IMG/VR virus record: IMGVR_UViG_3300047409_000475
Source: an uncultured virus (IMG/VR IMGVR_UViG_3300047409_000475)
Taxonomy: Duplodnaviria; Heunggongvirae; Uroviricota; Caudoviricetes
DNA: 64,000 nucleotides
Strand: one strand, 5' to 3'
In this document: one piece after another, positions 19,882 through 62,200 of the stretch
How the letters are laid out: each line of letters opens with the position of its first letter
Numbering within the stretch: position 1 is the first letter of the stretch
The notes under the pieces: generated by a model
What the model saw: the letters and a program-made list of their open reading frames with translations, nothing else
The model's database searches: none
Told to the model about the DNA's origin: nothing
Program-made: the position numbers and the translations under genes

Positions 19882-20354
19882 GCGCTTGGACGTTTGAATG
19901 GGACGACGCCGCCATCGAGCGCCTGAAGCGCCTGAAGGCTGACGGCCACTCGGCGGTCGATATCGCCAAGCTGCTTGGCGTCAGCAAGAACGCCGTCATC
20001 GGCAAGCTGTATCGCCTGAAGACCGTCGCCGGGCCCGTGCAGGTGGCGCGCACGAAGCGATCCTACCAAGCCAAGCCGCAGCCAAGCCGGAAGCAGAAGC
20101 AGGGCGCGGACAGGTGGTTCAAGATGGAGCCGCCGCCAGCGCCCAAGCCGCAGCAGCCCAATGTGCCGTTCACGCGCTCGATCCTTGAACTTGTGCACGG
20201 TCAGTGCAAGTGGCCAGAGGGTGACCGCGATTTCCTCTTCTGTGGTGAGCCGCAGGCAACGGGGCACGTGTATTGTGCCGCGCATGTCGAGCGTGCCTAC
20301 AACAAACCAAGGCATGGTCTGAGTGCCCATTTCATACGAACAACTCAAGGATAG
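19878..20354 (+). CDS. gcrA: GcrA-like transcription regulator
   Basis: WDDAAIERLKRL...SAVDIA...SKNAVIGKLYRL; CKWPEGD...FCG...YCAAH. Confidence 0.9.
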   Translation: MSAWTFEWDDAAIERLKRLKADGHSAVDIAKLLGVSKNAVIGKLYRLKTVAGPVQVARTKRSYQAKPQPSRKQKQGADRWFKMEPPPAPKPQQPNVPFTRSILELVHGQCKWPEGDRDFLFCGEPQATGHVYCAAHVERAYNKPRHGLSAHFIRTTQG

Positions 20355-21837
20355 CCGCAGCTTCGAGCTCTACAACGAGTGCGCGCGCTCCGAGGCAAGA
20401 GTAGACTTCTACTCGTTCCGCTGCCACATGCGCGAGGACATGAAGATCGGCTGGTGGTTGAAGGAGATATGCGACCACCTGCAGCGCTTCTACCTGCGCT
20501 TTATGAATGGTGAGCGGCCGAAGATGGTGCTGATGGCACCGCCGCAGCACGGCAAGACGACCATCGTCACCGACTTCATCGCGTGGGTGGCGGGCAAGAA
20601 CCCCTCGCTCAGGTGCCTGTTCACGTCCTACTCCGACGATCTCGGGCAGGGCGTCAACGTCAACTTGCAGCGCATGATGGACAGCGACAAATACAAGCAG
20701 GTGTTCGGGCCGCGCCTGCCAAGCTTCGGCCGCTCCATTGCAGGCATGCGCAACAACAACCTGCTGGAATACATGGGCGGGACTGGATCGTTCAAGGGCA
20801 GCTTCCGCAATACTACCGTGAACGGACAGGTTACTGGTAAGGGGCTGGACTTCGGCTTCATCGACGATCCGATCAAGGGCAGGCGTGAAGCAAACTCCAC
20901 GACCGTGCGCGACGCCACGTGGGCGTGGCTCACCGACGATTTCTTCACCCGCTTCTCCGACCACGCCGCGCTGCTGATGACGCTGACCCGCTGGCACCTC
21001 GACGATCCGGCCGGGCGCTTCCTGCAGAAATTTCCTGAGACGGAGGTGCTCGACTACCCGGCCATTGCCACCAAGGATGAGCTCCACCGCCGCAAGGGCG
21101 AGGCGCTGTTCCCCGAGTTCAAGTCGCTGGAGTTCCTCGAAGAGCGGCGGCGCGGCCTGAGCCAAGCCTCGTGGGTGTCGCTCTACCAGCAGAGCCCGAT
21201 CATCGCTGGCGGCGGCATGTTCCCCGTCGAGAAGTTCGCGGTGGTGAACGCGGTGCCGAAGAACGTCATCAAGTGGGTGCGCTACTGGGACAAGGCGGCC
21301 ACCGAGATGGGCGGCGCATACACGGCGGGCGTCAAGATGGGCAAGCTGCCGGACGGCGGCTTCATCGTCTCCGATGTGCGGCGCAAGCAATTGTCGGCAC
21401 TCGAACGCGAGCGCATGATCCTGCAGACGGCGCAGATGGACCGGCAGGAGAGCGGCCCCAACGTCTTGACCGTGGTTGAGCAGGAGCCGGGCTCAGGCGG
21501 CAAGGAGAGCGCCGAGCGCAGCGTGCGGATGCTCGCGGGCTACAAGGCAGAGGCCGACAAGGTCACCGACGCCAAGCACATCCGCGCCGATCCCTACGCC
21601 GCGCAAGTTCAGGCGGGCAACGTGTCGATCCTCTCGGCGATGTGGAACAAGGACTTTTTGAACGAACACGAGACGTTCCCGAATGGCACCTACGTCGATG
21701 TGGTGGACGCCGCCGCAGGCGCGTTCACCAAGCTGACGCTGGGCAGCACCTATGACAGCAGCATGCGGTGGGCGACGGGTGACGTTCCCGACAATGTTTT
21801 GGCACAGCAGCTAAACGGAGGCGCACGGCCATGGTAG
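20323..21837 (+). CDS. terL: Terminase large subunit
   Basis: MAPPQHGKT, IDDPIKG, TRWHLDD, LYQQSP, YWDKAA, DVVDA. Confidence 0.95.
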   Translation: MPISYEQLKDSRSFELYNECARSEARVDFYSFRCHMREDMKIGWWLKEICDHLQRFYLRFMNGERPKMVLMAPPQHGKTTIVTDFIAWVAGKNPSLRCLFTSYSDDLGQGVNVNLQRMMDSDKYKQVFGPRLPSFGRSIAGMRNNNLLEYMGGTGSFKGSFRNTTVNGQVTGKGLDFGFIDDPIKGRREANSTTVRDATWAWLTDDFFTRFSDHAALLMTLTRWHLDDPAGRFLQKFPETEVLDYPAIATKDELHRRKGEALFPEFKSLEFLEERRRGLSQASWVSLYQQSPIIAGGGMFPVEKFAVVNAVPKNVIKWVRYWDKAATEMGGAYTAGVKMGKLPDGGFIVSDVRRKQLSALERERMILQTAQMDRQESGPNVLTVVEQEPGSGGKESAERSVRMLAGYKAEADKVTDAKHIRADPYAAQVQAGNVSILSAMWNKDFLNEHETFPNGTYVDVVDAAAGAFTKLTLGSTYDSSMRWATGDVPDNVLAQQLNGGARPW

Positions 21838-24463: not shown

Positions 24464-27400
24464 ATGGGCGCACCGTTCGACGTTGCTGCGATCAAGGACA
24501 GCTTGATCAACCTCATGGCAGGCTTCGGCGTGCCGGGCCGCGACAAGGCGGCCAGCGGCGCGTCGTTCTGGCAGTTCACCCCGCTGTCGCAGTATGAGCT
24601 CGAAAGCGCCTACCGGGCCAACTGGATCGCTCGCAAGCTGATCGACATCCCGGCGCAGGACGCCACGCGCGCGTGGCGTGCGTGGCAGGCCGACACCAAT
24701 GTGGTGGAGCTGCTCGAAGAGGAGGAGACGCGCCTCGACGTGCAGGTGGTGCTGAAGAACGCCCTGATCATGTCGCGCCTCTACGGCGGCGCAGCCATCC
24801 TGCTCGGCGTCAAGGGCGCGAGCAACAACACGCCGCTCGACTACGAGAGCGTCGAGAAGGGCGGCCTTGAGTTCATCGCCGCCGTCTCGCGCTGGGCGCT
24901 CGGCACGGGTCCGCTGGTCAAAGACCCGATGGACCCGATGTATGGCAAGCCCGAGTATTTCACCCGCAACATGGACATCGGCCAGAACCAGACGGCGGCC
25001 GAGTTCCAGATACACCCGAGCCGCGTCATCATGCTGAAGGGCATGAACATGCCGGACCCGGTGATGCAGGGAGAAATCTGGGGCGACAGCGTGCTGCAGA
25101 ATGTGCAGGACGCGGTGCAGTCGGCCACCCTCGTCACCCAGTCCATCGCCACGCTGGTGACCGAGAGCAAGTTCGACATTATCAAAATCCCTGACCTGTC
25201 GCAGAACATCGCCACCGCCGAGTATCAGAACCGGCTCACGGCGAGGTTTGTGTATGCCAACTCGGTGAAGAGCGTGATCAACACGCTGCTGCTCGACAAG
25301 GAAGAGGAGTGGGAGCGCATCAATGCGAATTTCACGCAACTCCCCGATGTCCTGCAGATGTATCTCCTCATCGCCTCCGGTGCAGCAGACATCCCCGCTA
25401 CACGTATGCTCGGGCAGTCCCCTGCTGGACTACAGTCTACTGGAGAGAGTGATGTCCGTAACTACTACGACCGAATTAACAGCGATCAAACCAACGTATT
25501 GTCTCCCGCCCTTGCTGCTCTTGACGATGTATTGATCCGCTCTGCATTGGGCGACCGCGATCCTAGTCTGTATTATATCTGGAACCCGCTGTGGCAGATG
25601 CCCGCCACCGAGAAGGCGGCGGTCGCCAAGCAGAAGGCGGAAGCCTTCAACGTGGACATCATGGCCGGTGCTGTCGATGCCGAGGCGCTGCGCATCGGGC
25701 GGCAGAACCAGTTGATCGAGGACGGCACCTACCCCGGCCTTGAGCAGGCGCTGGAGCAACAAGACCAACTCGACATGGAGAGCATGCTGTCTCCCGAGGA
25801 GCAGGATGCGCAAGCGCAGGCCGAGATGGAGAAGCAGGCGGCGCTGGCTGGCCCCGGTCAACCGGGACAGCCGGGCCAGCCGGGCCAGCCGAATGGTGGC
25901 GGCAATCCGTTCCAGCGTGGCAAGGCACCGCAGAAGAAGGGCAACCCGTTCCAGAAGAAGGACAGCAGACCACTTGCCGTCGGCCGCCGCCTCAAGAAGG
26001 CACGCAGCACCCCGATCTTCAAGCGCCGCGCCGAATGGCTCGCCTCTGTGGCGCGCGATTACAACGAGTGCCATGACCCGGATACCGGCCTGTTCTGCGG
26101 CGAGGGTGGCACCAGCTACAGCGGCCCCTCGTCTGGATCGAGCGATCCGTATCAGTCCGAGGGCGCGACCGGCTTTGGTGCCGAGATCATGTCGGCGGCG
26201 CACGGCCGCCTGCACGGTGGCGAGCACGGCGTGTTCCGCGCTGAAGACCAAGGCATGGCCGACAAGCTGGAACGCGATATGGGGCGCGTGCTGGGCGAGC
26301 TCGACCGCTACAAGGAGAAGCCGGACAGCACGCGCATCAAGAACCTGATGGTCGAGCACCGCGACCTGATGAAGCAGATACGCCGCCTGCGCCTCGATCC
26401 GGGTGGCCTGCAAGGCTTCGGCAAGCCGGGCGGGCACCGCGACGTGGTGATCATTGGCGGCGGTCCCGCAGGCCTCAACGCGCTGGTCAATGCCGCCTAC
26501 GAGGGCATGGACGCCACGCTGCTGGAGGGCGGCTCGGACATTGGCGGCCAGTCACGCACCAGCGGCGGCATCAAGAACGTCGCAGGCACCAAATACGGGA
26601 CGCGTGGCAAGGCCTACTTCGAACGCCTCGCCAACCTCGCCACCGCCAACGGCGGCGAGATACGCACGCAGTCGAAGGTCCGCAACCTCACCTACGATCC
26701 GACTACCGGCCTGAAGACCATCCACCTCGACAACGGTGAGACGATCACTGCCCGCAACGTGGTGATCGCGACCGGCGTGCAGTTCAAGGTGATCAACTTC
26801 AAGGGCTCGGAGGGCACTGGCGTGCACTTCGGCGGCCACAACGATCTGCTCAACGAGGCGAAGGCGGCAGGCCGGGCGCAGAACCGCCCCGGCCACGTCG
26901 TCATCGTCGGCGGCTCGAATGGCGCGGCGCAGGCCGCGATCAGCGCCTCCAACGCCGGGCTGAAGGTCACCATCCTGTCGCGCTCCCCCATTGGCGGCGA
27001 GACGGGCAAGATGAGTGCCGATCCGTTGAAGGTCATTCGCGCCAAGCAGCGCACCAACATCAACGTGGTCGAGGGCGACGAGATCGCCGAGCTACAGCGT
27101 GACGCCGATGGCAAGCCGGTGGCCATCATCACCAAGGGCGGCAAGCGGCTGCCCGCCGACAGCGTCGGGCTGTATCTTGGACAGGCACCCGACACATCGT
27201 GGCTGCCCGACAGCATCGAGCGCGACGAGAAGGGTTACATCAAGGCTGATGTCGATCTGCGCTCCACCATGCCCGGCGTGTTCGTTCCCGGCGATGCACG
27301 CTCCGATCCGCCCGGCCGCGTGCAACGCTCCGGTGCCGAGGGCCAGACCTCCGTCGTCGGCGTGTTCAAATACCAGACCCAGCAGGCGCTCGCCTACGCA

Positions 27401-28810
27401 CGCGGCGACAACTCTCCGCACACCTCCGCATGGACGCGCCGCATCGCGGTGCCCGAGGAGGAGCAAGCGAAGCTCAACCAAGAGAACGAGCGGCTGGCGA
27501 GCGAGAACGAGAGCCTGCGGGCGCAGCTTGCCGAGCTCCGCAGGCGGCACGGTGATGCCGCGCGTGGGCGCTCGATACTCGGCGGCACAGACCCGCCCGA
27601 CAAGCCCGGCAAGATGACCTTCGCCGACTGGGATCAGTCGGTGGACATGCTGCACGCGCTCGACGCCGAAGACCCCTACATCACGCGCGGCATCGAGTAT
27701 GCGGCGGGTCAGCGGCTTGACCCGCTCAGCGGCCACGTCGATTACGAGGCTGGCGAGAGCTACAGCATCGATTACAGCCCCGACCAGCCGCGTGGGCAGC
27801 CAGACAACGCTGGCCAGTGGGGTCCGGGCGGTGGTGGATCGTCTGCCAAGTCGAAGCGCAGCGAGCCGTCGCAGAGCGCCAAGAGCAGCTACCGCGAGGT
27901 GCTGCAGACGCGCAAGAAGATCGGCAAGACACCGGGCGAGCGCGAGCACACCTACCAGAGCCTGCTGGAGAGCGGCGAGGGCAAGCACCCCGGCCACGGC
28001 TACTCGGGGCGCGCCGTCGAGGACGAGGACGGCATCATCCACACCGACGACGTGACGGATGTCGTGCGCGCGCTCTACGAGGGCCGCAAGGTCAACCTCT
28101 GCTCCGAGGACAAGGTCGCCATCGCCATCGACAAGGTGGGCAAGGTGGCCAGCCGCATGGCCAAGTCGAAGGGTGAGGGCAAGGACCGCACCTTCGATCT
28201 GTGCAACGTCACGGTCGAGGGCACCAACTTGTTCTGCGCCGAGAGCAAGGGCATCCCGCGTGTGAAGATGCCGCAGTTGAAGGGTGTGCCGAAGCCCAAC
28301 AGCCCCGCTTCGAAGCTGCCCGCCAACAAGAAGGGCGAGGTCGATCTCACGCAGGCGTTCCGCGATCACCTCGAAGAGATCGGCCTGACCATCGACGACA
28401 CCGACGTGCGTGCCGACCACCTGAAGGCCAGCCAGAACGAACTGAACGGTGCAAAGATCGCCGGTATGGCGAGCGCGATCCGCGCGGGCAAGATCGGTGA
28501 GGAGCGCATCTTCGTCAGCGACGACAACTACATCGTGGACGGTCACCACCGCTGGGCCGCCAACGTCGCGGTGGACTACGACGACAACAAGTCCGGCGAC
28601 ATCAAGATGCCGGTGGCGCGCATCAACGCCTCGATCCTTGAGCTCTTGGAGATCAGCAACACCTTCGCACGCGAGATGGGCATCCCGCAGGCGGGCGTCG
28701 GCGCAATGGTGCCGAAGGAAGAGCAGAAGCAGACAACCAAGAAGGATGCGGTGACGCACGGCTCCCACCGCCCTTTCGCTTCAACCCTTACACCGGCATC
28801 CGACTGGTAG
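24464..28810 (+). CDS. DUF1073-type portal fused to TrxB-like and ParB-like domains
   Basis: Portal motifs (YRANWIARKLIDIPAQD, RLYGG, IHPSRVI, GQSPAGL..TGESD, WNPLWQ) in aa ~1-440; GGGPAG, IATG, VFVPGD; IVDGHHRWAA. Confidence 0.9.
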   Translation: MGAPFDVAAIKDSLINLMAGFGVPGRDKAASGASFWQFTPLSQYELESAYRANWIARKLIDIPAQDATRAWRAWQADTNVVELLEEEETRLDVQVVLKNALIMSRLYGGAAILLGVKGASNNTPLDYESVEKGGLEFIAAVSRWALGTGPLVKDPMDPMYGKPEYFTRNMDIGQNQTAAEFQIHPSRVIMLKGMNMPDPVMQGEIWGDSVLQNVQDAVQSATLVTQSIATLVTESKFDIIKIPDLSQNIATAEYQNRLTARFVYANSVKSVINTLLLDKEEEWERINANFTQLPDVLQMYLLIASGAADIPATRMLGQSPAGLQSTGESDVRNYYDRINSDQTNVLSPALAALDDVLIRSALGDRDPSLYYIWNPLWQMPATEKAAVAKQKAEAFNVDIMAGAVDAEALRIGRQNQLIEDGTYPGLEQALEQQDQLDMESMLSPEEQDAQAQAEMEKQAALAGPGQPGQPGQPGQPNGGGNPFQRGKAPQKKGNPFQKKDSRPLAVGRRLKKARSTPIFKRRAEWLASVARDYNECHDPDTGLFCGEGGTSYSGPSSGSSDPYQSEGATGFGAEIMSAAHGRLHGGEHGVFRAEDQGMADKLERDMGRVLGELDRYKEKPDSTRIKNLMVEHRDLMKQIRRLRLDPGGLQGFGKPGGHRDVVIIGGGPAGLNALVNAAYEGMDATLLEGGSDIGGQSRTSGGIKNVAGTKYGTRGKAYFERLANLATANGGEIRTQSKVRNLTYDPTTGLKTIHLDNGETITARNVVIATGVQFKVINFKGSEGTGVHFGGHNDLLNEAKAAGRAQNRPGHVVIVGGSNGAAQAAISASNAGLKVTILSRSPIGGETGKMSADPLKVIRAKQRTNINVVEGDEIAELQRDADGKPVAIITKGGKRLPADSVGLYLGQAPDTSWLPDSIERDEKGYIKADVDLRSTMPGVFVPGDARSDPPGRVQRSGAEGQTSVVGVFKYQTQQALAYARGDNSPHTSAWTRRIAVPEEEQAKLNQENERLASENESLRAQLAELRRRHGDAARGRSILGGTDPPDKPGKMTFADWDQSVDMLHALDAEDPYITRGIEYAAGQRLDPLSGHVDYEAGESYSIDYSPDQPRGQPDNAGQWGPGGGGSSAKSKRSEPSQSAKSSYREVLQTRKKIGKTPGEREHTYQSLLESGEGKHPGHGYSGRAVEDEDGIIHTDDVTDVVRALYEGRKVNLCSEDKVAIAIDKVGKVASRMAKSKGEGKDRTFDLCNVTVEGTNLFCAESKGIPRVKMPQLKGVPKPNSPASKLPANKKGEVDLTQAFRDHLEEIGLTIDDTDVRADHLKASQNELNGAKIAGMASAIRAGKIGEERIFVSDDNYIVDGHHRWAANVAVDYDDNKSGDIKMPVARINASILELLEISNTFAREMGIPQAGVGAMVPKEEQKQTTKKDAVTHGSHRPFASTLTPASDW

Positions 28811-31800
28811 GAGACGAGTGGAACGAGGCCGACCACCCGCGCGGTCAACCCAACAACGCCGGGCAGTTCGGGCCCGGTGGCGGCGGCTCCAGCAGTAAAT
28901 CCGGTAAATCCGGTAAATCCGGCGGCAGCACCGGATTTGTCTCCCCGAATATCCACGACCTGCAGATCGAGCAGGCGGCCAACGCCATCACCTCATCAGC
29001 CCGTCAGAAGCTGCTCAACGAGGCCAGCCGTGAAATAAATTCGGCGCTTGGGCTGAAGGTCAACCAAGCGCCGGTCGTGGGCGCGTGGTCAGATGGTGCC
29101 GAGAACAGCATCATGCTCTCGTGGTCCGGCGAGAACCCCGCCGTCGAGCGCGCCGCCTTGGCCATGGAAGGCTACATCGCCGACCAGAAATCGGTGCTCT
29201 ACTTCCAGCCCGACACGCAGGCCGAGGAGTTCATCGCACGCTTCACCGCCGAGGGCGATGTCGTTGCCGTGCATGAAGATTTGTTAAAGCGCGGCCTTGC
29301 CTTCCACACCTTGCGCCCCACATCCGAGGGCACCGTGGTGTATGTCTACGGTCAGGACCAAGAGACACTCGACAAGGTAGGCGATGCGGCCAAGGCGCAC
29401 AACGCCGAGATGTCGTGGACGCCGGGCAAGGGAGAGTTCATTGGCACAAAGCTCGAAAACGGAGAAGCCACCGACCGAGAGCAAAGGGACGACGCCCGGC
29501 GCGTCTACGAAGACGAAATTAGTCGGGCCGCCGGGGGCGAAGTTGGACATGTCTGGGAGGACATACGGGATCGTTGGACCCGCCGACTTCAACAATCCCA
29601 AGATCAAGAAGTAGGCGACTTCAACCCCAACCACGATCCCGATACCGGCGAGTTCAGCAGCGGCGAAGGCGGCGGTGGTGGCGGCGACTTCACGGTCGCC
29701 TCGCCCGCGCAGCGCGTTCAATACAAGGCCAACCGCGCGGGCAAGATCGCCGAGTATGACCCGCGCTTTTTCACGCACCGGCCGCTGGTGCTGGAGTATG
29801 AGGGCAAGCCGCTGGACATGGGGCGCGACGAGCTCGTGCGAACCGCTCCCTACAATGCCGACCTGTCCAACGTGCCCACCTCGCCCGACATCATCTACCG
29901 TGGCATGTCGGCGGGCGAGTTCGACGCCATCCAGAAGACCGGCGAGATACGCGGCAGCGGCGAATACAATATCGGTGAGCAGCAGCGGGGCCTGACCTAC
30001 TACGGCGCAGACCCGCAGATCGCGCAGTCCTACGCCAGCAGCTTCGCGCCGCGCAAATACAAGCCAAGCTGGGATCGACCGGCCTACGTGGTCGCCATCC
30101 GCCGCCCGCCCCCGGAGCTCATCCGGCAAGTGTCGGGTGTCGGTGAGAACGAGGTGGGCGTGGTTGGTGCCGTGCCTGCCGACGACATCGTGGCGGTCTA
30201 CCGTGGCGACGTCATTGCCTACGTGCCCGAGGAGCACTACGCGGGCGGCAGCACCTCAGCCATGGTCACGCTGAACTGGAGCCAGCAGGCTCTGCCACCG
30301 CGCAAGGGCGGCGACGGTTGGAACCGCGCCACGGGCACGCGGCTGGAGAGCGAGTATGATGCCTCGCGCGCGGCTGTCGCCGCCACCGTGCACGACCTTG
30401 GCGTGGCGGAACCGGAGCAACTCGACCCGCTGTCGCAGCGCTCCAACAACGACAGCAGCACGCACCAGTTCGCCACGGCGCTGGTCGAGAAGCACGCCGC
30501 CAAGGTCATGTCGGAGCGGCTCGCACGCCCGATAGACCCGGCCGCAGTGCACGCCATGGGCAGCCGCCTGTGGAGTGACTGGCTCGACAGCACCGCACTC
30601 ACCAAGGGTGGGAAGCTGTTGCAGCTTGCCGCCGCCGAGGAATTGGGCGGCCGGTTCGATGAGCGGCGGATGATCGGATCGAAGCTGCAGGAATTGGTCG
30701 AGGCCGCCGACAAGGAGTTTGCCGATGTCGGCGGCTACGCGGGCGTCAAGGCCTACGTGCGCGGCATGTGGGAGACGACGCAATACCTGCTGGAGCGATC
30801 CGGCATGAACGATGTCGGCGTCTACCGCTCGATCTGGCAGCGGCCGGAGGAGCGTGGTCGCTCGGAGGAGTTTGCACACGGGGCACAGCGCTGGACGCGG
30901 CTGCCCGATACGCTGATCCGGCGCAACGGCATGGCATCGTTCTCGGCGGCGTCGAGCATGGCATCTTCGTGGGGGCAGGGCGACCGCACCGTGATCCGCG
31001 CCAAGGTGCCGCGCACCGCCATCGTGTCGATCCCCGCCTACGGCGGCAACGACACCGACGAGATGGAGCTCACCGTGGCGGGGACGGCGTGGCATGGCTG
31101 GGACGCGTGGCTGCGCTCGGCACCCGACTTCAACACTGTGCCGCTGGTCGAGCCGCCCGACAAGATCAAGGACGAGGCAGCGCCGCCTGCGGCATCGACA
31201 CTGCCTTCCGCCTCAGCCGGGGCACCGGCCGAGAACCAGTCGCTGCAGCCGGTCAACGATCCGAAATATCGCGCCATCGATCTGCAGCGCCTCGACACCG
31301 ACTGGCTGCGGCCCGCTGGCCGCGCCCGCGCCCGCCTCGCGCGCGACGATGTCTCAGGCTCCTTCGCCAGCAAGCAGGGCTCTTGGCTGATGGACCCGGA
31401 GACGGGCGAGCTCATCGGCTCCTCCAGCGAGGAGGGCGGTGGCGGCGGTGAGAGCGCAGCGCCAGCGCGTGCAGCTACACTGCCGAAGGCGGCGAAGACC
31501 AAGGCAGCGAAGGCCACGACCAGTCCGGCGGCGTCACCTCCGAAGAAGATCGAAGGCGTCAAGGCCGACAGCCACCCGGCCAAGATCAGCCCGAGCTACA
31601 CCAAGACCAACAAGCGCACGGTGAACAGCGAGGACACCTACGTCCCGACCGGCCTCGCCACCATGGCCAAGCACGAGCACAGCTACAGCCACAACATCGC
31701 CTTGCACGCCAACGCCGCCCATTATCCGGGCCTGCGCGCCGAGGATACCGAAGGCACCAACGCCGTGGTGGCGCGCAACATCGTTGACCGCATGAAGAGC

Positions 31801-32934
31801 AATCTGCGCTACCTGTGGACCAAGGCCACCGCTGCGCAGAAGACGGCGGCCAACTGGTATCGCGGCGCGAACAGCAGGATACGTGCCAAGGCCACGCAGT
31901 ATAAACTCGACAGCGCCAGCGTGGCGGGCGTCTATGCGGCGCTCAGCCCGACCAAGGACTGGGAAGAGAACATCTACCTCGCCGACCGTGTGCTCGACAT
32001 CTACCACACCAAGCAGCATTTCGAGTGGACGCAGGAGATGTCGGACACCGCTGAGCGCATCTGGCTGAAGGAGAGCAGCGAGAAGGACAGCCCCGAGAGG
32101 CAGGCCAGCATCGTCGCCAGTAACGCGGTGAAGACGGCGCAATGGCAGCGCCTGCGTGCGGCCAAGACGTTGTCGGCGCTGACCAGCCACCGCGACATGG
32201 CGATGTGGATACGCACCTACGACGAGACTTACGGCGACCCGGAGCAGGAGATCGTCTCGGGTGTGCTGCACGGGCGCGGTTACCGTGAGTTCCTGCCCGA
32301 CGGCACGCTCGGCGGCTTCCGCATGACCCAGCCGCAAAGCGGCAATCCCGAGAAGGCACTGGTGACGTGGCAGTCGATGACCATGACCGCCAACGCCATC
32401 GAAGCGATGCTGTCGGGTGGTGACCGCCACATCATCTCCGCTGCCGTGGGTGAGCGGCACAAGGTCAGGAATTTCTACAACAACCTCGTCGATCCCGATG
32501 GCACCGACGGCGACGTGACCATCGACAGCCACGCAGTGGGCGGCGCGTGGATGATGCCGACATCCGGCGTCGAGGTGGCCAAGGGGCACGCACTCGCCAC
32601 CTCGCCCGGTGAGGGTGCGCAGAACGCCAAGAACGGACCATCGGAAGGCATCTGGGGCACCTACGGCTTCTACGCCGACGCCTACCGTGAACTGGCCGGG
32701 GAGCTCCACATGCTGCCCGACGAACTGCAGGCGGTGCTGTGGGTGGTGAAGCGCGACGCCTTTGTTGACATGGCCAAGCAAGCACAGGTCGATATCCGCT
32801 CCATGTGGCAAAGCTTCCACAACGGTGACCGTTCGCTCGCGGAGACACACGACGCGGTGTGGCGTATCGTCGAGGAGGATCAGCAGCGCAAGCGTGACGC
32901 CGCTGCTGCCCGCTCACAGAGGACTGCAGAATGA
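28777..32934 (+). CDS. Continuation of the portal polyprotein in the -1 frame: unknown domain, two ART-like domains, HhH-glycosylase-like domain
   Basis: Frame open from 28642 with no ATG/GTG/TTG before 29077, yet it encodes a tag at 28813 that nearly matches the tag at 27770. Confidence 0.8.
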   Translation, partial: RFNPYTGIRLVGDEWNEADHPRGQPNNAGQFGPGGGGSSSKSGKSGKSGGSTGFVSPNIHDLQIEQAANAITSSARQKLLNEASREINSALGLKVNQAPVVGAWSDGAENSIMLSWSGENPAVERAALAMEGYIADQKSVLYFQPDTQAEEFIARFTAEGDVVAVHEDLLKRGLAFHTLRPTSEGTVVYVYGQDQETLDKVGDAAKAHNAEMSWTPGKGEFIGTKLENGEATDREQRDDARRVYEDEISRAAGGEVGHVWEDIRDRWTRRLQQSQDQEVGDFNPNHDPDTGEFSSGEGGGGGGDFTVASPAQRVQYKANRAGKIAEYDPRFFTHRPLVLEYEGKPLDMGRDELVRTAPYNADLSNVPTSPDIIYRGMSAGEFDAIQKTGEIRGSGEYNIGEQQRGLTYYGADPQIAQSYASSFAPRKYKPSWDRPAYVVAIRRPPPELIRQVSGVGENEVGVVGAVPADDIVAVYRGDVIAYVPEEHYAGGSTSAMVTLNWSQQALPPRKGGDGWNRATGTRLESEYDASRAAVAATVHDLGVAEPEQLDPLSQRSNNDSSTHQFATALVEKHAAKVMSERLARPIDPAAVHAMGSRLWSDWLDSTALTKGGKLLQLAAAEELGGRFDERRMIGSKLQELVEAADKEFADVGGYAGVKAYVRGMWETTQYLLERSGMNDVGVYRSIWQRPEERGRSEEFAHGAQRWTRLPDTLIRRNGMASFSAASSMASSWGQGDRTVIRAKVPRTAIVSIPAYGGNDTDEMELTVAGTAWHGWDAWLRSAPDFNTVPLVEPPDKIKDEAAPPAASTLPSASAGAPAENQSLQPVNDPKYRAIDLQRLDTDWLRPAGRARARLARDDVSGSFASKQGSWLMDPETGELIGSSSEEGGGGGESAAPARAATLPKAAKTKAAKATTSPAASPPKKIEGVKADSHPAKISPSYTKTNKRTVNSEDTYVPTGLATMAKHEHSYSHNIALHANAAHYPGLRAEDTEGTNAVVARNIVDRMKSNLRYLWTKATAAQKTAANWYRGANSRIRAKATQYKLDSASVAGVYAALSPTKDWEENIYLADRVLDIYHTKQHFEWTQEMSDTAERIWLKESSEKDSPERQASIVASNAVKTAQWQRLRAAKTLSALTSHRDMAMWIRTYDETYGDPEQEIVSGVLHGRGYREFLPDGTLGGFRMTQPQSGNPEKALVTWQSMTMTANAIEAMLSGGDRHIISAAVGERHKVRNFYNNLVDPDGTDGDVTIDSHAVGGAWMMPTSGVEVAKGHALATSPGEGAQNAKNGPSEGIWGTYGFYADAYRELAGELHMLPDELQAVLWVVKRDAFVDMAKQAQVDIRSMWQSFHNGDRSLAETHDAVWRIVEEDQQRKRDAAAARSQRTAE

Positions 32935-33243: not shown

Positions 33244-33705
33244 ATGCCAACGACCATCCCGTTCGAAGACGACATCTTGAAGCTCATCTTCCAAGCCGTC
33301 GCCATCCAAGGCATCGCCATCAACCACACGACCACGCCGCTCGCGTCCTACTACGTGTCGCTGTGCAAGGCGGACCCGATCCTGCCGACCAATCAGGTGC
33401 AGGACCAGTTGACCAGCGAGGTCTTCTACACCGGCTACGCGCGCGTGCTGGTGCCGCGCAATCCGCTCGGCTGGAAGGTGGGCGGCGGCGTGGTGACAGC
33501 GGTCAACGTCATCGCCTTCGCCATCCCCACCGACATCGTGCAACCGTTCTACGCCACGCACTTCGCCATCGGGGGAGCGGCCAGCGGAGCGGGCAAGCTT
33601 ATTGCGTCGGGCAAGCTGGTGCCGCCGATCCAGATCGCCAACGGCGTCGAGCCGCGCATCGACAACAAGTCGCCCGCCGCGCGCATGCCCGACGACTGGG
33701 TTTGA
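33244..33705 (+). CDS. Virion-associated beta protein
   Basis: YVSL..ADP, EV.YTGYARV, THFAIG pattern. Confidence 0.6.
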   Translation: MPTTIPFEDDILKLIFQAVAIQGIAINHTTTPLASYYVSLCKADPILPTNQVQDQLTSEVFYTGYARVLVPRNPLGWKVGGGVVTAVNVIAFAIPTDIVQPFYATHFAIGGAASGAGKLIASGKLVPPIQIANGVEPRIDNKSPAARMPDDWV

Positions 33706-33706
33706 G

Positions 33707-34651
33707 TTGTTCCCTGCGTCGGCACCACATGCGCGTCCGCGCCGCATCCTCAGCGATGCGGCGAAGAAGCGTGACCCGACGCAGTCGAACGACATCCGGC
33801 GGCGCATCTCCACCAATCTGCGGCAAGGGCTTGCTGCATGGCGCAGCCAGATATACGCGGCCGTCGTCGAGGCTGACCAGTTCGGCTACGTCTACGGCGA
33901 CGTGGACCGTGGCGACGCCGAGGCGCTGATCGAACGCCTCGACACCCTGTTGCACCGGGGAGCCGAGTTCGCCTTCACCCCTGCCGCCGACCAGATGGAC
34001 GTGATGCTGGGCACCGCCTACGCGCGCGGCGTGCGCAAGGCGGGGCAGGAGGTGCAGCCCGTGATGCCGCTCACCAGCAGCACCTTCGAACTGGCGCAGC
34101 GGGCGCGTGACGACCTTGAGAACATGCTGGAGGACCGCATCGCAGAGTGCTTGCGCGTCCTGCGCGAGGACGAGGATACGGCTGCCGCCGCCACCTCTTC
34201 GCGCTACCTGCTCTACACCGCGCTGCTGTTGCCGACCGTGATCCGGCCGCTGGTCAGCCGCCTCAACGCGCTTTCGACTACCAACGTTACTCGGGCATAC
34301 AACACCGGCAAGCTTGATGCCTACGAGGTGCTCGGCATCGACGAGGTGGGCGTGCAGGCCGAGAGCCAGCCTTCGTCCGGCAAGCAACTCTCCGAGTTGC
34401 TCGCTGAGCATGTGCGTGAGCAAGCGGCCGAGCAGTTGCTACACGAGCATCTTCCGAGCGAGGAGTTTTCCGAGCCGGTGCTGCCAGAGGGACAGCGCTT
34501 CCCAGAGTTCTATACGGTCGAGACGGTAGGGGATGACAGGGTGTGCGACATATGCGAGGGTTACGAGGGCAACACCTATACGCTGGCAGAAGCGCGGGAG
34601 TTGATCCCTGCACATCCTAACTGCAGATGCAGCATCGTTCCGGTGGCGTGA
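33707..34651 (+). CDS. MuF/SPP1 gp7-like minor head protein (start uncertain)
   Basis: TVGDDRVCDIC...IPAHPNCRC. Confidence 0.8.
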   Translation: MFPASAPHARPRRILSDAAKKRDPTQSNDIRRRISTNLRQGLAAWRSQIYAAVVEADQFGYVYGDVDRGDAEALIERLDTLLHRGAEFAFTPAADQMDVMLGTAYARGVRKAGQEVQPVMPLTSSTFELAQRARDDLENMLEDRIAECLRVLREDEDTAAAATSSRYLLYTALLLPTVIRPLVSRLNALSTTNVTRAYNTGKLDAYEVLGIDEVGVQAESQPSSGKQLSELLAEHVREQAAEQLLHEHLPSEEFSEPVLPEGQRFPEFYTVETVGDDRVCDICEGYEGNTYTLAEARELIPAHPNCRCSIVPVA

Positions 34652-34936: not shown

Positions 34937-35124
34937 GCAAACGATGGGTGTGGGGCCTGTTTGAGGTCGCCACTGCACTACTGTTCATCGCTGCGATTGT
35001 CTTCGTGACCGTCATGGTCACGATCTCTTTCTCCAACTGAACTGCTCGACATCATTGGGGTGAAGTGCCGTTCCGCGCGGGACGGCGAAGCCATGCCTAC
35101 CCACCAACAAGGAGGGCCCGCTTG

Positions 35125-36444
35125 ATGGCCAATAACTACGATGCACCCGACGTGTGCAGCGAAGACAGTCCCGACTACGACGAGGAAGCCTGCGCTGCGC
35201 GGCGCTCCGAGGACGCCTTCCCGCCAAAGGAGGAGAAAGCCTCGAACGAGGAGGCCGATCCCTGCGACGAGAGCTCCGACGCCTACGACGAGGAGGAGTG
35301 CAAGCGCCTGAAATCGGCGGCGAAGACCGGCGACAGCATGGCGTGGGTGGAGGATGCCGTCATCGACCGTGGCAACATGCGGATGACTGCCAACGGCTAC
35401 CTCGTTGCACAGGCGCGCGTCGCCCGCACCGGCATCCAGATTTACCACGGCGACGAGATCGGTGATCCGCGTCCCACCGTGCGCGTCTATCGGCCCGAGA
35501 AGACGGTGTTCGCACGCGACAGCCTGCACAGCTTTGGTCACAAGCCGGTGACGCTTGGGCATCCCCCGGAGATGGTCAACGCCCACAACTGGCGCGACTA
35601 CGCCGTCGGCCACGTGGACGGCGAGATCGTGCGCGACGGCGACATGGTCAAGGTGCCGATGATGATCACCGACGCCACCGCTATCGAGGCCATCAACCGG
35701 GGCGCGTCGCAGCTATCGGTTGGCTACGACGCACGGCTGGAGATCGTCGATGGCAAGACCCCGGACGGTGAAGCCTACGACGCCATCCAGCACGACATCC
35801 GGGTCAACCACATTGCTCTCACGCCAACGGCGCGCGGCGGCCCGCAACTGCGTCTCGGCGACAAAGGACAGAAAGGACAGAAAATGGAACGAGCCAAGCT
35901 TAATGACGAGCGCACCGTCACCATCGACGGCATCGAGTTGAAGCTGCCCGAGCCCAACGCCAGCATCGTGCAGCGCGGCCTGAAGAAGCTGCGCGATCAG
36001 GTGATCTCTCTCACCTCCGAGCGTGACACGCTGAGCGGCAAGGTCGCTGCCATGTCGAAGCAGGTGAAGGACAGCACCTTCTCCGACGCCGAGCTCGACG
36101 CGCGCGTGGCGCAGCGGCAGGCGCTGGTGTCACAGGCACAGAAGGTGCTCGGCCAGTCATGGCAGCCGGACGGCAAGCCCACCAATGACATCCGTCGCGA
36201 GGTGGTCGCCAGCAGGCTCGGCGACGACGTGGCGAAGGCGATGACCGACGCCGCCATCGAGGGCGCGTTCACGGCGGTCACCGCCACCGATGCATCGAGT
36301 GCACCACGCGAGCTCGCACAAGCGCTTGCCAAGCCCGGCTACGGCACCAGCAGCAAGCCCAACGCTGAACAGGCGTGGGAGGAGCGCGGCAAGCTGATGC
36401 GCGAAGCGTGGCGTAGCAACAACGGCTCGATGGTGAAGCAGTAA
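35125..36444 (+). CDS. DUF2213 prohead protease/scaffold
   Basis: ARTGIQIY, VYRP, PVTLGHP, QLSVGY, NHIAL...ARGG; coiled-coil C-terminus. Confidence 0.9.
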   Translation: MANNYDAPDVCSEDSPDYDEEACAARRSEDAFPPKEEKASNEEADPCDESSDAYDEEECKRLKSAAKTGDSMAWVEDAVIDRGNMRMTANGYLVAQARVARTGIQIYHGDEIGDPRPTVRVYRPEKTVFARDSLHSFGHKPVTLGHPPEMVNAHNWRDYAVGHVDGEIVRDGDMVKVPMMITDATAIEAINRGASQLSVGYDARLEIVDGKTPDGEAYDAIQHDIRVNHIALTPTARGGPQLRLGDKGQKGQKMERAKLNDERTVTIDGIELKLPEPNASIVQRGLKKLRDQVISLTSERDTLSGKVAAMSKQVKDSTFSDAELDARVAQRQALVSQAQKVLGQSWQPDGKPTNDIRREVVASRLGDDVAKAMTDAAIEGAFTAVTATDASSAPRELAQALAKPGYGTSSKPNAEQAWEERGKLMREAWRSNNGSMVKQ

Positions 36445-36997: not shown

Positions 36998-37936
36998 ATG
37001 CCCCGTCAATTCGTGGATGCACAGGCTGCGATGGCCTTTATGGTCAACCAAGCCGCCTATATTGAGAGCGAGGTCTACCGCACTCAGTATCCAGAAATCC
37101 AATACCCGACGCTCGTCCCCATCGACGAGAGCGCCCCCGAGTGGACCAAGTCCGTCACCTTCTACTCCATCGACCGGGTGGGTGAGGCGCAGTGGTTCCA
37201 CCACATGTCAACCGACATCCGGCTGGCTGATGTGCAGCGCTCGGCCTACGAACAGGGCATCGAGATGGCGGCCATCGGGTATCGCTACACGCTCGAAGAG
37301 ATCGGGCAGGCGATGATGATCGGCTGGAACCTCACCACCGAGCGGGCGGCTGCGGCCGTGCGTGCGGCCGAGGAGTTCACCGAGCGCGTCGCCATGGTAG
37401 GCGATGCCACCAAAGGCTGGACCGGCATCATCAACGCTCTCGGCGTCACCGCCACCACGGCGCAGGCCGGTGTGGGCGGCATCACGTGGGTGACGAAGAC
37501 CGCCGATGAAATCCTGCGCGACGTGAACAACGCGCTGGCCGACATCTACACCACTTCGAACACCATCGAGACGGCGAACACCATCCTGTTGCCGATCAAC
37601 CAATACTCGTTGATCAGCACCAAGCGGCTCTCCGACAGCCTCGACATGACGATCATGGAGTGGCTCACACGCTACAATGTTTACACTGCCCAAACGGGCC
37701 AGCCGCTCACCATCCGCGCAGTTCGTCAGCTTGCGACTGCAGGCGCTGGCGGCACGGCGCGCATGATGGTCTACCGGCGCGACCCGACGGTGTTGAAGAT
37801 GCACATCCCGATGCGGCATCGCTTCCTGCCGGTCTGGCAGACGGGCCCGATAACTTTTGACATCCCCGGAATTTTCCGTCTGGGCGGTGCCGAGGTGCGG
37901 CGTCCGGGCGCGGTGCGCTACGTGGACGGCATCTAA
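36998..37936 (+). CDS. Major capsid protein (DUF2184-like)
   Basis: IESEVYRTQYPEIQY, YTLEEI, RLGGAEVRRP, YVDGI; TAAGGAG RBS. Confidence 0.92.
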   Translation: MPRQFVDAQAAMAFMVNQAAYIESEVYRTQYPEIQYPTLVPIDESAPEWTKSVTFYSIDRVGEAQWFHHMSTDIRLADVQRSAYEQGIEMAAIGYRYTLEEIGQAMMIGWNLTTERAAAAVRAAEEFTERVAMVGDATKGWTGIINALGVTATTAQAGVGGITWVTKTADEILRDVNNALADIYTTSNTIETANTILLPINQYSLISTKRLSDSLDMTIMEWLTRYNVYTAQTGQPLTIRAVRQLATAGAGGTARMMVYRRDPTVLKMHIPMRHRFLPVWQTGPITFDIPGIFRLGGAEVRRPGAVRYVDGI

Positions 37937-43336: not shown

Positions 43337-43557
43337 TCGTCATGGGGTGTGGATGTGGACAGCGCCGCGAGATCGGCGCTCGCATGGTTACGGCGCTGCG
43401 CAACGGTGACAACGCCGCGCTGCGCGCACACATGGGCGAGATGGCTCGCTCGCTTGGCGACGACCTGCGCGTCGGTCGCGCGCAGATCAGCAGGAACTGG
43501 CAACAGGCCCCGAGGCCGATTGATCCGCCGCGACCGTTCACGGTGCGTCGCTTCTGA
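43333..43557 (+). CDS. Hypothetical protein
   Basis: MGCGCGQRR. Confidence 0.55.
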   Translation: MIVMGCGCGQRREIGARMVTALRNGDNAALRAHMGEMARSLGDDLRVGRAQISRNWQQAPRPIDPPRPFTVRRF

Positions 43558-44093
43558 TGCCGAAAGCACCAGCGCCGACCTCGCTGGTGCTGGGGATCGA
43601 TACGTCGGTCTTGCAGGCGCAATACACCTACGCGGTGACGATCAGTCAGAGCGAGATCGAGCGGGCGCTGCCCATCGAGGTGAACAACAGCGGCCACGTG
43701 CTGTTCAACGACGTGGTCACCGAGATCAGCCGCGACTTCCCCGATGTGCCGCCGCAGGTGATCGCGTCGGCGCTTACCAGCCGCGAAGCAACCGGCGTGC
43801 TGCCGAGCTTCAGCATCTCATCCGCCGAAGCGATGGTGACCTACGTCGAGTGGATCACCAGCCGCGACGAAAGGGTCTGCCCGATCTGCGGGCCGCGCGA
43901 CGGCGTCGTCTACCGGATCATCGACGTGATGGACATCTACCCGGCACACCCAAATTGCCGCTGCAGGCTTGAGCGGCTGGGCATCACCGACAGCATGCTG
44001 CAGGCTGGTGCCGAGCTCCTGCCCGACGCGATGCAGCGCGTTGCCGATGGTGTGCTCGAACAGTTCGGGCGCGTCTGGGGACGCTTCGGATGA
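43557..44093 (+). CDS. Second MuF-domain protein
   Basis: WITSRDERVCPIC...PAHPNCRC. Confidence 0.75.
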   Translation: MPKAPAPTSLVLGIDTSVLQAQYTYAVTISQSEIERALPIEVNNSGHVLFNDVVTEISRDFPDVPPQVIASALTSREATGVLPSFSISSAEAMVTYVEWITSRDERVCPICGPRDGVVYRIIDVMDIYPAHPNCRCRLERLGITDSMLQAGAELLPDAMQRVADGVLEQFGRVWGRFG

Positions 44094-59290: not shown

Positions 59291-62200
59291 ATGCCAATCG
59301 GCGTTCTCAATCCAGCCGACAAAGACCACTCGACAGCGCAGCGTCCCGTCGCGCCGGTAGGTGGTGCTGCGCAGCGCCGCTGGTATTCCGACCCGCTCAA
59401 CACTGAAATTCGCGACCACGACTTCAACGGCATCATTGCACAGATCAGGCACGTCATCGACCACTTCGCCATCACCGACGTGGAGGGCGACGACACGCTG
59501 CTCAGGCAGGCCATCGTCAAGGGCACGGCGGCACTGACTGGCAACGTCGCTGCACTGCAGGCGATCATCCCCGGTGCCGACAAGGTGCCCTACTGGTCGA
59601 GCACCTCGACCGCCTCGCTGACGACGTTCATCGCCTCGGCCTACTCGCGCGGCCTGCTGGCCAACGCCAACCTCGCGGCGTGGCAGACGGCGCTCGGCAT
59701 GACCGCCGCCACCAAGCCCAACAACATCGCCTTCGGCAACCTCGTCAGTGCCGCCAACACCATCGCCTACTTCACTTCGAACACCAGCGGCATGGCGCTG
59801 ACGCCGTTCACGCCAGTCGCACGGCAATTGCTCGACGACGCTACCTTCCCGGCGATGCGCGCGACGCTGGGGCTGGTTGGCCCCTACATCGACTTCACCA
59901 CGCTCGCCTTGCTGGGCAACCAGCCGCTGGTCTTCAACGGCGGGCAAGTCACCTCCAATACCAGCATCCCCGTCCCGACGCTGGTCCTGACGATCAAAAG
60001 CGGCGCAGCCACCACCGGCTACATCGGCATGTCGGCGGCACCCGGCGGCTTCGATAGTTCGAAGGGTGCCAACATCGTCCTCTACGGTGGCACGCATGCG
60101 ACCAATGCTGGCGACCTCGCGCTGCACAGCGGCAGCATGCCGGGTGCGCAAATCCTTCTCAACGGCGTGCCGATCAGCCCGTTCGCCACCAGCACCAACG
60201 CCGCCAACCTGACCGGCACGCTGCCAATCGCGGTCATCGCCACGGCCTCGATCCCCTACACCAAGCTCGGGGTGATCGCCAGCGACCGCATCCTCGGCAA
60301 CGTCAGCGGTGCCAACGCCTCGCCGATCCCGCTCACCGCCGCGCAGGTGCGGGACATGCTCGACCTGTCCGGGTCAGGTGACGGCACGCTGGCCAAGATC
60401 GCCACCACCGGCAGCGCCACCGACTTGTCATCCGGCCTCATCCCGGCGGCCCGCTATCAGGTGGCCACGATTGCGCTGAGCAAGCTGGTGGTGATCCCCA
60501 CCGACACCATCCTCGGCAACACCAACGCCAACCCCGCCTCGCCGCTGGCGCTGACCGTGGCTGAGGTGCGCGCCATGCTCGGGGTTACGGCTGGCGTCAC
60601 GCTGGCTCCCATCGCCACCTCGGGCAGCGCCGCGCACCTGACCAGCGGCTTCATCCCGGCGGCCCGCTATCAGGCCGCCACGATCCCGCTGGCGGCGCTG
60701 CACGTCATCCCCGCCGACACCATGCTCGGCAACACCCTCACCTCACCCGCCGCGCCGGTAGCGCTCACCGTGACCGAGATACGTGCGATGCTCGGCATCG
60801 CGGCTGGCTCGGTGCCGCTGGCCGAGATCGCCACTTCGGGCGACGCCTCCGACCTGATCGCGGGCATCATCCCTGCCGCACGCTACGGCACGGGCAGCAT
60901 CGCGCTCAACAAGCTGGTCGTCCTGCCGGTCGATACCATCCTCGGCAACACCGCCACCACGCCTGCCGCACCGGTCGCGCTGACCGTTGCACAGGTGAAG
61001 ACGATGCTCGGCCTCGATACGCTGGGCGGGCAGTTGGCACTCATCGCGAGCTCGGGCAGCGCCGCCGACCTGATCGTCGGCCTCATCCCCGCCAACCGCT
61101 ACGGCGCAGCCACGATCCCGCTGAGCAAGCTGGTGGTGATCTCCACCGACCACATCCTCGGCAACGTCAGCGGCAACAACCTGTCGCCCTATCCGCTCAC
61201 CCCCACGCAGGTGAAGACGATGCTCGGCATCGCCACGCCGGGGGCGGGCTTGGCGACCATCGCTGTCACCGGCAGCGCCGCCGATCTGGTGACCGGCACC
61301 ATCCCGCAAGCCCGCTACGGCACCGGCACCATTCCGCTGAGCAAGATGGTCGTGATCCCCACCGACCACATCATCGGCAACGTCAGCGGCGGCAACCTGA
61401 CGGCCTACCCGCTGACCGTGGCGCAGGTGCGCGAGATGCTCAACCTCGGCGGCGCGACCGGCCCGCTCGCCGCCATCGCCACGTCAGGCAGCGCCGCTGA
61501 TCTGGTGACCGGCGTCATCAACACGTCGCGCTACGGCACCGCCTCGATTGGCTACAACAAGCTGGCGCTGATCGCAGCCCACACCATCCTCGGCAACACT
61601 ACGGTCAACCTCGGCCCACCCGTCGCGCTGACCGTGGCTGAGGTCAAGGTGATGCTTGGCATCGACACGGCGGCTGGGCTGGCAGCCATTGCCGCCTCGG
61701 GCAGCGCCGCCGACCTGATCGCGGGCATCATCCCGGCAGCGCGCTACGGCACGGGCACCATCGCGTGGACCAAGCTGGCGATCATGCCGGTCGATACGCT
61801 GCTCGGCAACACTGCCGCCAATCCAGCCGCGCCGGTCGCGTTGACCGTGGCCGATGTCAAGCTGATGCTCGGCATCGCCAGTCTTGGCAGCAATCTGGCG
61901 GTTATCGCCACTTCTGGCAGTGCCACCGATCTGATCGCAGGCATCATCCCGGCGGCGCGCATCGGTGTCGGCGAGATCGCGCTGAACAAGATCACGGTGA
62001 TCTCGGCAGCCACCATCCTCGGCAACAACGGTGCAGCCGCTGCCTCGCCGAAGGCGCTGACCGTGTCTGAAGTGAAGGCGATGCTCGGTGTCACGGCGGG
62101 CACTGTGCTGGCACCTATCGCCACCTCGGGCAGTGCCGCCGATCTGACCGCAGGCGTCATCGCTGCGGCGCGCTTCGGTGTAGCCACGATAGGGCTGACC

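Follow-up and report, generated by a model that had tools for sequence, protein, structure and literature searches.

Our analysis showed that a conserved peptide motif, referred to below as the tag, recurs between the modules of a long cargo chain attached to the portal protein of an uncultured tailed phage, in a stretch of 64,000 nucleotides (the window) from IMG/VR record IMGVR_UViG_3300047409_000475. The source is a soil myovirus-type phage, and the sequencing runs in which the window is found are soil metagenomes. We show the motif to be real and under selection at the peptide level. Judged from its domain content, the window chain is a phage-type polyvalent protein carried on the C-terminus of the portal: it combines at least two unrelated effector-type domains in one polypeptide (Pyr_redox_2, a ParB-like module, a conserved module termed M3, two leads resembling ADP-ribosyltransferases (ARTs), and DUF7178), and it lies in a head module with terminase, portal fusion, MuF-like open reading frame (ORF), DUF2213 and capsid genes. 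We give an even chance to the reading that the tags act as a portable header signal of capsid-borne cargo units, for their loading and/or their separation.

Five copies of the tag in the window chain

The window chain runs in the order portal, tag 1, flavoenzyme, tag 2, ParB-like module, tag 3, M3, tag 4, two ART-like modules, tag 5 and DUF7178. All five peptides lie on the + strand, exactly where a first-pass annotation of the DNA had placed them, and each sits between two modules, in keeping with its description of them as marks of module boundaries. Tag 2 (27770-27838; DYSPDQPRGQPDNAGQWGPGGGG) reads Y-S-P-D-Q-P-R, a 6-residue loop and G-Q-W-GPGGGG; tag 3 (28813-28887; DEWNEADHPRGQPNNAGQFGPGGGG) reads W-N-E-x-x-H-P-R-G-Q-P-x-N-A-G-Q-F-GPGGGG; and tag 4 (29617-29685; DFNPNHDPDTGEFSSGEGGGGGG) reads F-N-P-N-H-D-P-D-T-G-E-F followed by a Gly run. 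These three were recovered, with independent E values of 7e-8, 4e-5 and 4e-3, respectively, by a profile that was built solely on 15 tag copies from other phages and run against the 106,941 residues of the window's six-frame ORFs, where the best decoy reached 4.0 bits. Tags 1 and 5 were within the noise of this independent profile in the same search. Tag 1 (26057-26110; DYNECHDPDTGLFCGEGG), which belongs to an N-H-D-P-x-T-G-x-F sub-variant, scores 35 bits with the full profile, and tag 5 (31345-31449; DDVSG...MDPETGELIGSSSEEGGGGG), a degenerate copy with M-D-P-E-T-G-E-L and a Gly run, stays at 11.5 bits with the full profile, even when that profile contains tag 5 itself. By these scores, the tally for the window is three strong copies, one sub-variant and one decayed copy.

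Of 19 residues compared between tags 2 and 3, 17 are identical, and only 3 of these 17 have identical codons. This likeness in residues combined with unlikeness in codons indicates that selection acts on the peptide, and bears out the earlier remark that the peptide is conserved while its codons are not. Between tags 1 and 4, 7 of 8 residues agree, four of these seven being encoded by identical codons. In six-frame regular-expression searches of the 64 kb, PRGQPxNAGQ[FW]-type strings occurred at tags 2 and 3 only, and DPxTG at tags 1, 4 and 5 and once more at 26696, inside the flavoenzyme domain, where it is probably a chance occurrence. The distribution is equally narrow in a larger set of 591,312 six-frame residues, comprising the window and 36 portal-related loci: all hits of at least 11 bits are on the + strand and within or just past the portal ORF. 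One 84-kb contig (L002) has four hits only, all in or just after its portal ORF.

One motif with loops of different length

The 36 loci were collected with the portal domain as query, and similar peptides follow the portal there. The core of the motif was derived from an alignment of 20 tag copies and its residue statistics from 158 copies in 66 other proteins. The consensus, of about 20 residues, is a short helix followed by [DKAG]-[FYW]-[DNS]-[PE]-x-[QEH]-P-R, a loop of 3, 6 or 8 residues, and G-x-[WF]-[TS]-x-GGG. The loop between R and G has 3 residues in 103 of the 158 copies and 8 in 42, while the PRGQPxNAGQ type of the window has 6. Position +1 is D in 79 copies and N in 28, position +2 is P in 124, and the W/F of the motif is followed by T, S, G, G, G. 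The commonest form is P-R-D-x-x-G-x-W, and the T of DPxTG and the NPNH string are restricted to one sub-variant. The two tag types distinguished in the first-pass annotation, DPxTG and PRGQPxNAGQ, thus merge into loop-length variants of a single motif.

The same counts bear on the mechanism that had been proposed together with these types, in which the DUF2213 prohead protease cuts after a leading Asp and so uncovers a signal for packaging or ejection at the new N-terminus. Asp does stand directly before the aromatic residue in four of the five window tags, tag 3 having Asp-Glu, fusions of the form DUF2213-tag-cargo exist, and there is a precedent in T4, whose prohead proteases process internal proteins according to a passage in PMC9024508 that cites Mullaney and Black (1996). 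Elsewhere, however, Asp is found at this position in only 37 of the 158 copies, level with Ala (38) and Lys (35) and followed by Gly (13). Since A, D and K are comparably frequent there, being Asp-led is a local trait that lies outside the motif, and cleavage after this residue is not supported as a property of the tag. The tag also occurs with S78-type proteases and in protease-free chains; that it follows four portal families, MuF, S78 proteases and DUF2213 alike speaks against the DUF2213 protease as its specific reader; and there is no tag-like site in the protease or capsid genes of the window, where the tag profile has no match, nor in the MuF-like genes. A complex prediction for the DUF2213 protein with the tag returned a score of 0.00, which is no answer and weighs neither way. 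Taken together, we regard cleavage after Asp by the DUF2213 protease as very improbable. The similar Asp sites cited in its favour at supposed processing points elsewhere (KKD-S in the portal, TGD-S and LGD-K in the protease and FVD-A in the capsid protein) do exist as strings, but nothing marks them as processing points.

No Pfam match at E ≤ 1 was obtained for the tag-bearing segments and no NCBIfam match at E ≤ 1 for seven tag-bearing pieces (five from the window, P0067 and P0060), and the motif is found in none of the solved PDB chains, the best E value being 0.35. The sole known model holding a tag-like stretch is PHROG 113, a long portal profile (E 8e-6). Neither motif strings nor descriptions of the motif were found in the literature searched, which for Iyer et al. 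(2017) was the main text, and wording on a motif, linker, glycine or cleavage is absent from Jamet et al., 2017 (PMC5576092). We also considered the tag as a metal loop of the EF-hand or dockerin type, as an SH3-type PxxP ligand and as a 2A-like NPG element, and set these resemblances aside; none had support from any test.

Tags behave as headers of exchangeable modules

Tags behave as headers, not trailers, of modules. Among 202 other carriers, 67 have a first tag that starts in the first 30 residues of the protein and 92 one that starts in the first 60, but only 7 have a tag in the last 60 residues. The spacing between successive tags has a median of 248 residues (lower and upper quartiles 173 and 359), and no spacing is below 30. 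The portal fusions of the window and of L002 are 78% identical up to residue 516 and unrelated from about 15 residues before the tag, the tag sub-variant itself being different in the two. Since portal similarity ends ahead of the tag, the unit of exchange consists of leader, tag, linker and module, and the tag travels with the module behind it when modules are exchanged. The sub-variant of tag 3 also precedes M3 in L040, L046, L049 and L050, and that of tag 1 is also found in P0039, P0059, L064 and L054. The cassette running from M3 to DUF7178 is attached to the portal in the window and to DUF2213 in L040 and L046, and stands directly behind a MuF-type C-R-C motif in L011 and L016.

In an AlphaFold2 (AF2) model of the segment from tag 3 through M3 to tag 4, built on an alignment of 16 sequences, the predicted local distance difference test (pLDDT) score of M3 exceeds 90 over most of residues 60-290, and both tags are below 50. 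Linkers of 4 to more than 60 residues separate the tags from the domains that follow them. Such strong conservation inside a disordered stretch gives the tag the appearance of a short linear recognition motif. It could also be a passive junction cassette, that is, a tolerated linker made of a short cap and a poly-Gly hinge, which is inherited with its module, read by nothing and serves to insulate folding units. The disorder in the model, the variable distance to the next domain, the many unrelated head families and the existence of portal-cargo fusions that lack the tag all agree with such a cassette. It does not readily account for the conservation of some ten specific positions (the aromatic residue, P, Q/E, P-R, G-x-W and T-S-G-G-G) across 1,850 clusters despite codon drift, or for the 92-to-7 bias towards N-terminal over C-terminal positions, or for the restriction of the tag, in the carriers scanned, to phage-type polyvalent proteins, never with conjugation domains. 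We therefore consider a purely passive linker unlikely.

Carriers of the tag

An exhaustive HMMER search of 1.84e9 cluster representatives returned 1,850 proteins at E ≤ 1e-3, 264 at E ≤ 1e-10 and 8 at E ≤ 1e-30. A word-seeded profile search returned 67 proteins at E ≤ 0.01 among 8,000 scored candidates, one of the 67 being the window's own. A head-protein domain is present on the same chain in 11 of these 67 carriers (Phage_portal_3 in four, Portal_Mu in three, and MuF, S78, S78_2 and DUF2213 in one each), and the remaining ones have ART-PolyVal, ParBc, Acb1, NUDIX, Zeta toxin, GNAT, 2H, flavoenzyme or DUF7178 domains, or nothing recognised. Pfam analysis of 40 more carriers (20 tagged ORFs from the loci and 20 top representatives) gave the same domain picture, with Phage_portal_3, Phage_portal_2, Phage_portal (lambda-type and HK97-type families), MuF and DUF2213 as anchors. 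Conjugation-type domains were found in none of the carriers scanned with Pfam. By these domain assignments, the sampled carriers are polyvalent proteins of phages, with portal, MuF or prohead-protease domains either on the same chain or in a neighbouring gene.

The link between the tags and head proteins, DUF2213 included, that the first-pass annotation had anticipated is indeed seen, with DUF2213-tag-cargo arrangements in L040 and L046 and further examples in P0049 and P0088; the DUF2213 anchor occurs at either end of the chain. Four further loci (L029, L030, L032 and L024) encode DUF2213 proteins with N-terminal extensions of 190-390 residues, and cargo can therefore also precede the protease, as it does in P0088 and P0049. 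Acb1, an enzyme directed against the cyclic oligonucleotide-based antiphage signalling system (CBASS), was observed as a tagged module in L027 (9968-13249), P0078 and P0085, either fused to a portal or in giant chains, which suggests that tagged Acb1 proteins are virion-delivered anti-defence enzymes.

A degenerate DNA pattern for one tag variant matched 45 sites in bacterial genomes sampled at one per species, where about 0.02 chance matches were estimated under the assumption of even base composition; the 45 sites are mostly in soil Alphaproteobacteria, with a few in Actinobacteria. Methylocapsa palsarum NE2, which has five tag matches, is a cultured carrier. A tblastn search of 50,697 GenBank phage records gave no match for the pieces containing the tag of P0035 and window tag 3, and one match at E 2 for the tag piece of L011, although this was a weak search, with short queries and a low-complexity filter.

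A host-side or self-contained reader would explain the independence of the tag from any head-protein family, as would be the case if the tag were a post-injection cut site or self-cleaving, with a host protease or the chemistry of the [DN]-P bond freeing the modules in the infected cell. A [DN]-P pair is present in most copies, and the whole window chain has no zincin HExxH motif that could do the cutting. The W-[DN]-E-x-x-H-P-R sub-variant represented by tag 3 has no [DN]-P bond, though, the hosts come from several phyla, and neither homology to known self-cleaving modules nor a PDB chain with the motif (best E 0.35) was found, so that release by a host protease or by self-cleavage seems to us a fairly remote prospect.

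Between 2 and 22 copies per protein were counted in the best 150 of the 1,850, with 22 in a protein of 7,334 residues. Together with the disordered Gly-rich context, the conserved Y/F, R and W residues and the many free-standing giant proteins that open with a tag, these numbers would fit a role as multivalent stickers, in which aromatic residues and Arg in Gly-rich spacers bind to each other, condense chains near the portal and recruit free tag-headed proteins. Known sticker motifs are far less specific than the tag, whose loop has exactly 3 or 8 residues in 145 of 158 copies, and we hold a sticker role to be highly unlikely.

A candidate -1 frameshift within the chain

The window chain is split between two reading frames. 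ORF1 (24464..28810, + strand) encodes the portal protein and the first part of its C-terminal cargo chain, giving an unshifted product of 1448 residues that would comprise the portal, the flavoenzyme and the ParB-like module. A candidate slippery heptamer, C_CCT_TTC, lies at 28771..28777 (+ strand) in the X_XXY_YYZ phase of ORF1, 39 nucleotides before its stop codon. The -1 frame stays open between 28642 and 32934, and its first ATG, GTG or TTG is at 29077; a start there would remove 47 residues from the beginning of M3, a conserved domain that is modelled with confidence. Tag 3 lies in this frame ahead of 29077, where translation can reach it only by a -1 shift. A -1 slip at the heptamer yields ...HRPF|RFNPYTGIRLVGDEW... 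and continues for 1385 residues (28777..32934, + strand), to give a predicted fusion of 2823 residues in which four further tagged modules would be added. A -1 frameshift at C_CCU_UUC (28771) probably helps to set the dosage of cargo.

The same signal is present in an unrelated lineage. In L043, L044 and L045, whose portal is 49% identical to that of the window, a plain portal gene ends 30 nucleotides after an identical heptamer in identical phase (5710-5716 in L043), and the -1 frame enters a leader and tag directly. We listed 78 overlapping ORF junctions from all loci and screened each for a heptamer that is in phase and has a T or A triplet, together with an extended -1 continuation lacking a canonical start before the upstream stop; only the window and the L043/L044/L045 type qualify. 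The candidate shows features expected of a programmed -1 frameshift, namely an in-phase heptamer in the overlap, a downstream frame that has no usable start and encodes a needed continuation, and a signal conserved in independent relatives, if in two lineages only. In L055, M2 (the ParB-like module) and M3 are joined in a single frame. The site is spanned, with no indel, by contigs of three other soil runs from three studies, one of which has three nearby substitutions and so represents a different strain. An RNA G-quadruplex in the Gly codons was also considered as a stimulator; at about 90 nucleotides from the slip site it is too distant, and it has no support from any test.

Proposed role of the tag

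In the role that we favour, the tag would be a portable recognition signal, functionally akin to a capsid-targeting or processing sequence, that marks cargo units for incorporation into the head and/or separation from the chain, with the marked cargo thereby able to leave with the DNA; Asp would not be the determinant in recognition. The tag probably labels head-carried cargo. A more far-reaching version, in which tailed phages in general use the motif as an address or processing code, the proteins that it heads enter the head and leave with the DNA, and the -1 frameshift sets the number of portal subunits with a long chain, is conceivable but doubtful. A general code of this kind across portal, MuF and protease families would imply either an unrecognised common reader or recruitment from tag to tag.

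Several points weigh against the proposed role. What speaks for it is position and conservation only. Tags are found behind MuF and behind members of at least four portal and three protease families, an anchor diversity that makes a single phage-encoded reader hard to imagine and disfavours any one head-protein family as the reader. Regions of the cultured phages phiPSA1, RHEph04 and F116 (p60), all three of them portal-cargo or polyvalent arrangements found by domain homology, have no tag, so that the tag is not required for such fusions. The carriers were chosen by tag score and are hence rich in multi-copy proteins, and the N-terminal bias of the tag could in part come from gene callers that start ORFs at frameshift continuations. 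As to the frameshift, no stimulatory RNA structure was found in 28765-28900 (z-score of 0.09, with 104 of 200 shuffles folding as well), and a scan of all IMG/VR for the heptamer plus a tag gave eight stretches, with the right configuration in two lineages only.

Modules of the chain and their surroundings

The first module (M1; 26441..27343, + strand) is a thioredoxin-reductase-like FAD/NAD(P) oxidoreductase identified by its Pfam match to Pyr_redox_2, and is also present in the tagged relatives L061 and P0030. M2 (27911..28765, + strand) is a ParB/Srx-like module with a DGHHR motif that matches PHROG 2859 (E 5e-22) and, weakly, SerK, which has a ParB fold; most of its 15 related loci have tags before and/or after the module. 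At 27900-27990, M2 opens with a conserved H-P-G-x-G-Y-S...G-[VI]-I-H-T stretch, which comes right after tag and linker in many phages. M3 (28936..29619, + strand) is a conserved domain named here after its 'FVSPN' string, with 25 invariant columns in the alignment of 16 sequences, among them G-A-W-x-D-G-A-E-N-S. It is a frequent module of tagged chains (L038-L061) and has no family name. Its predicted fold appears to be tandem ferredoxin-like, on weak fold matches. We considered M3 as a processing enzyme and dropped this idea in view of the weak fold matches and because no more than 18 of the 202 carriers include M3 in their chain.

M4 and M5 (29686..31344, + strand) are possibly ADP-ribosyltransferase-like. 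The leads are a tblastn match of 41% over residues 331-547 to a 'large polyvalent protein' of a Planktothrix phage and Atlas feature matches to ART-type clusters (0.87 and 0.91); there is no Pfam match for either module. The terminal module, DUF7178 (31783..32931, + strand; Pfam PF23802, E 1e-21), is also the last module of many tagged chains.

The window contains a phage head-to-tail module consisting of terminase, amidase, portal, MuF-like ORF, DUF2213, cement protein, capsid and tail sheath genes. The large terminase lies at 20323-21837. The Pfam matches of ORF1 are Phage_portal_3 at residues 44-396 (E 2e-102) and Pyr_redox_2 at residues 660-960 (E 3e-34), and the portal domain itself (24593..25651, + strand) also matches the PHROG 146 portal family (E 3.5e-118). 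Downstream of the chain are the gene for the DUF2213 prohead protease/scaffold protein (35065..36444, + strand; Pfam E 1e-50), which has no tag, and that for the major capsid protein (36998..37936, + strand; Pfam PF09950, E 1e-84). Two ORFs (33602-34651 and 43557-44093) match only the C-terminal part of the MuF profile, and neither has cargo or a tag; the first stops directly after its MuF-profile match. Near the end of the window, a tandem array of about ten or more copies of a 216-nucleotide (72-codon) unit, matching one another at 68-75%, occupies 60398-63102 within a giant open ORF (59291-64000) that runs off the window and may encode a repetitive fibre or surface protein.

Significance and comparison with known systems

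Polyvalent proteins are thought to be the first weapons delivered by a phage. To our knowledge, the loading, dosing and release of such cargo are not known outside T4 and P1. Tagged chains include Acb1 anti-CBASS domains, ADP-ribosyltransferases and NUDIX enzymes, and a conserved header motif would offer a simple sequence handle for capsid-borne cargo in metagenomes, with 1,850 clusters at hand and many modules of no known family. It would also open the way to a direct test for a common loading or processing mechanism and, if portable, would be a tool to load proteins into phage heads, while the frameshift would be a possible means of controlling the dosage of portal-attached cargo.

The class of polyvalent proteins is already known, and it is the junction tag that appears, from database comparison, to have no Pfam, NCBIfam or PDB counterpart. 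In their main text, Iyer, Burroughs, Anand, de Souza and Aravind (2017; PMC5512222) describe phage-type polyvalent proteins with portal and MuF fusions that are predicted to be packaged and injected, and propose zincin peptidase domains for their processing. The window chain is like these proteins in having many effectors per chain (ART, ParB-like, NUDIX, GNAT and 2H being the types concerned) and in being encoded with portal-terminase head genes, and unlike their processing proposal in having no HExxH motif. The same main text (PMC5512222) does not mention the present junction motif and has no wording on linker, glycine, low-complexity or disordered.

The tag resembles the T4 capsid targeting sequence (CTS) and the P1 DarB-type signals in that each is short, portable to other proteins and placed at the start of a protein that travels in the capsid and enters the host along with the DNA, which in the present case is a prediction. 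The T4 and P1 signals belong to one phage each, are single, lie at the extreme N-terminus and have been shown experimentally, whereas the tag is common to very diverse phages, repeats inside chains and is known from its sequence alone; there is no sequence likeness between them. The CTS is N-terminal; the window tags are internal, and in relatives the first tag starts in the first 60 residues in 92 of 202 carriers. The CTS is removed by the prohead protease at a defined site; no conserved P1 residue was seen in the tag (Asp in 37 of 158).

Programmed -1 frameshifts are found in phage structural genes, such as the tail chaperone G/GT, and in dnaX. The candidate described here is like these in having an X_XXY_YYZ heptamer near the end of the upstream frame, a startless downstream frame and two products with a common N-terminus, and unlike them in that the predicted shift extends a portal-cargo polyprotein and that no stimulatory structure was found.

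Short motifs also demarcate exchangeable modules in polymorphic toxins (VENN, and DPxGL in Rhs proteins), and sortase LPxTG and FlhB NPTH sites are further familiar examples of short motifs. Tags 1 and 4 contain D-P-x-T-G and N-P-N-H strings that superficially resemble LPxTG, DPxGL and NPTH, but these strings are sub-variant features only, and we found no Rhs shell, sortase or export-gate context, nor an RHS/YD Pfam match on either ORF. An Rhs/YD DPxGL autoproteolytic junction was accordingly rejected, there being no RHS/YD domain and DPxTG being limited to a sub-variant. Encapsulin cargo-loading peptides are C-terminal peptides on a flexible Gly/Pro-rich linker that bind a known pocket of the shell and bring enzymes into a shell of HK97 fold. 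The tag is like them a short conserved peptide on a flexible linker that is shared by unrelated enzymes, and differs from them in standing N-terminal to the modules.

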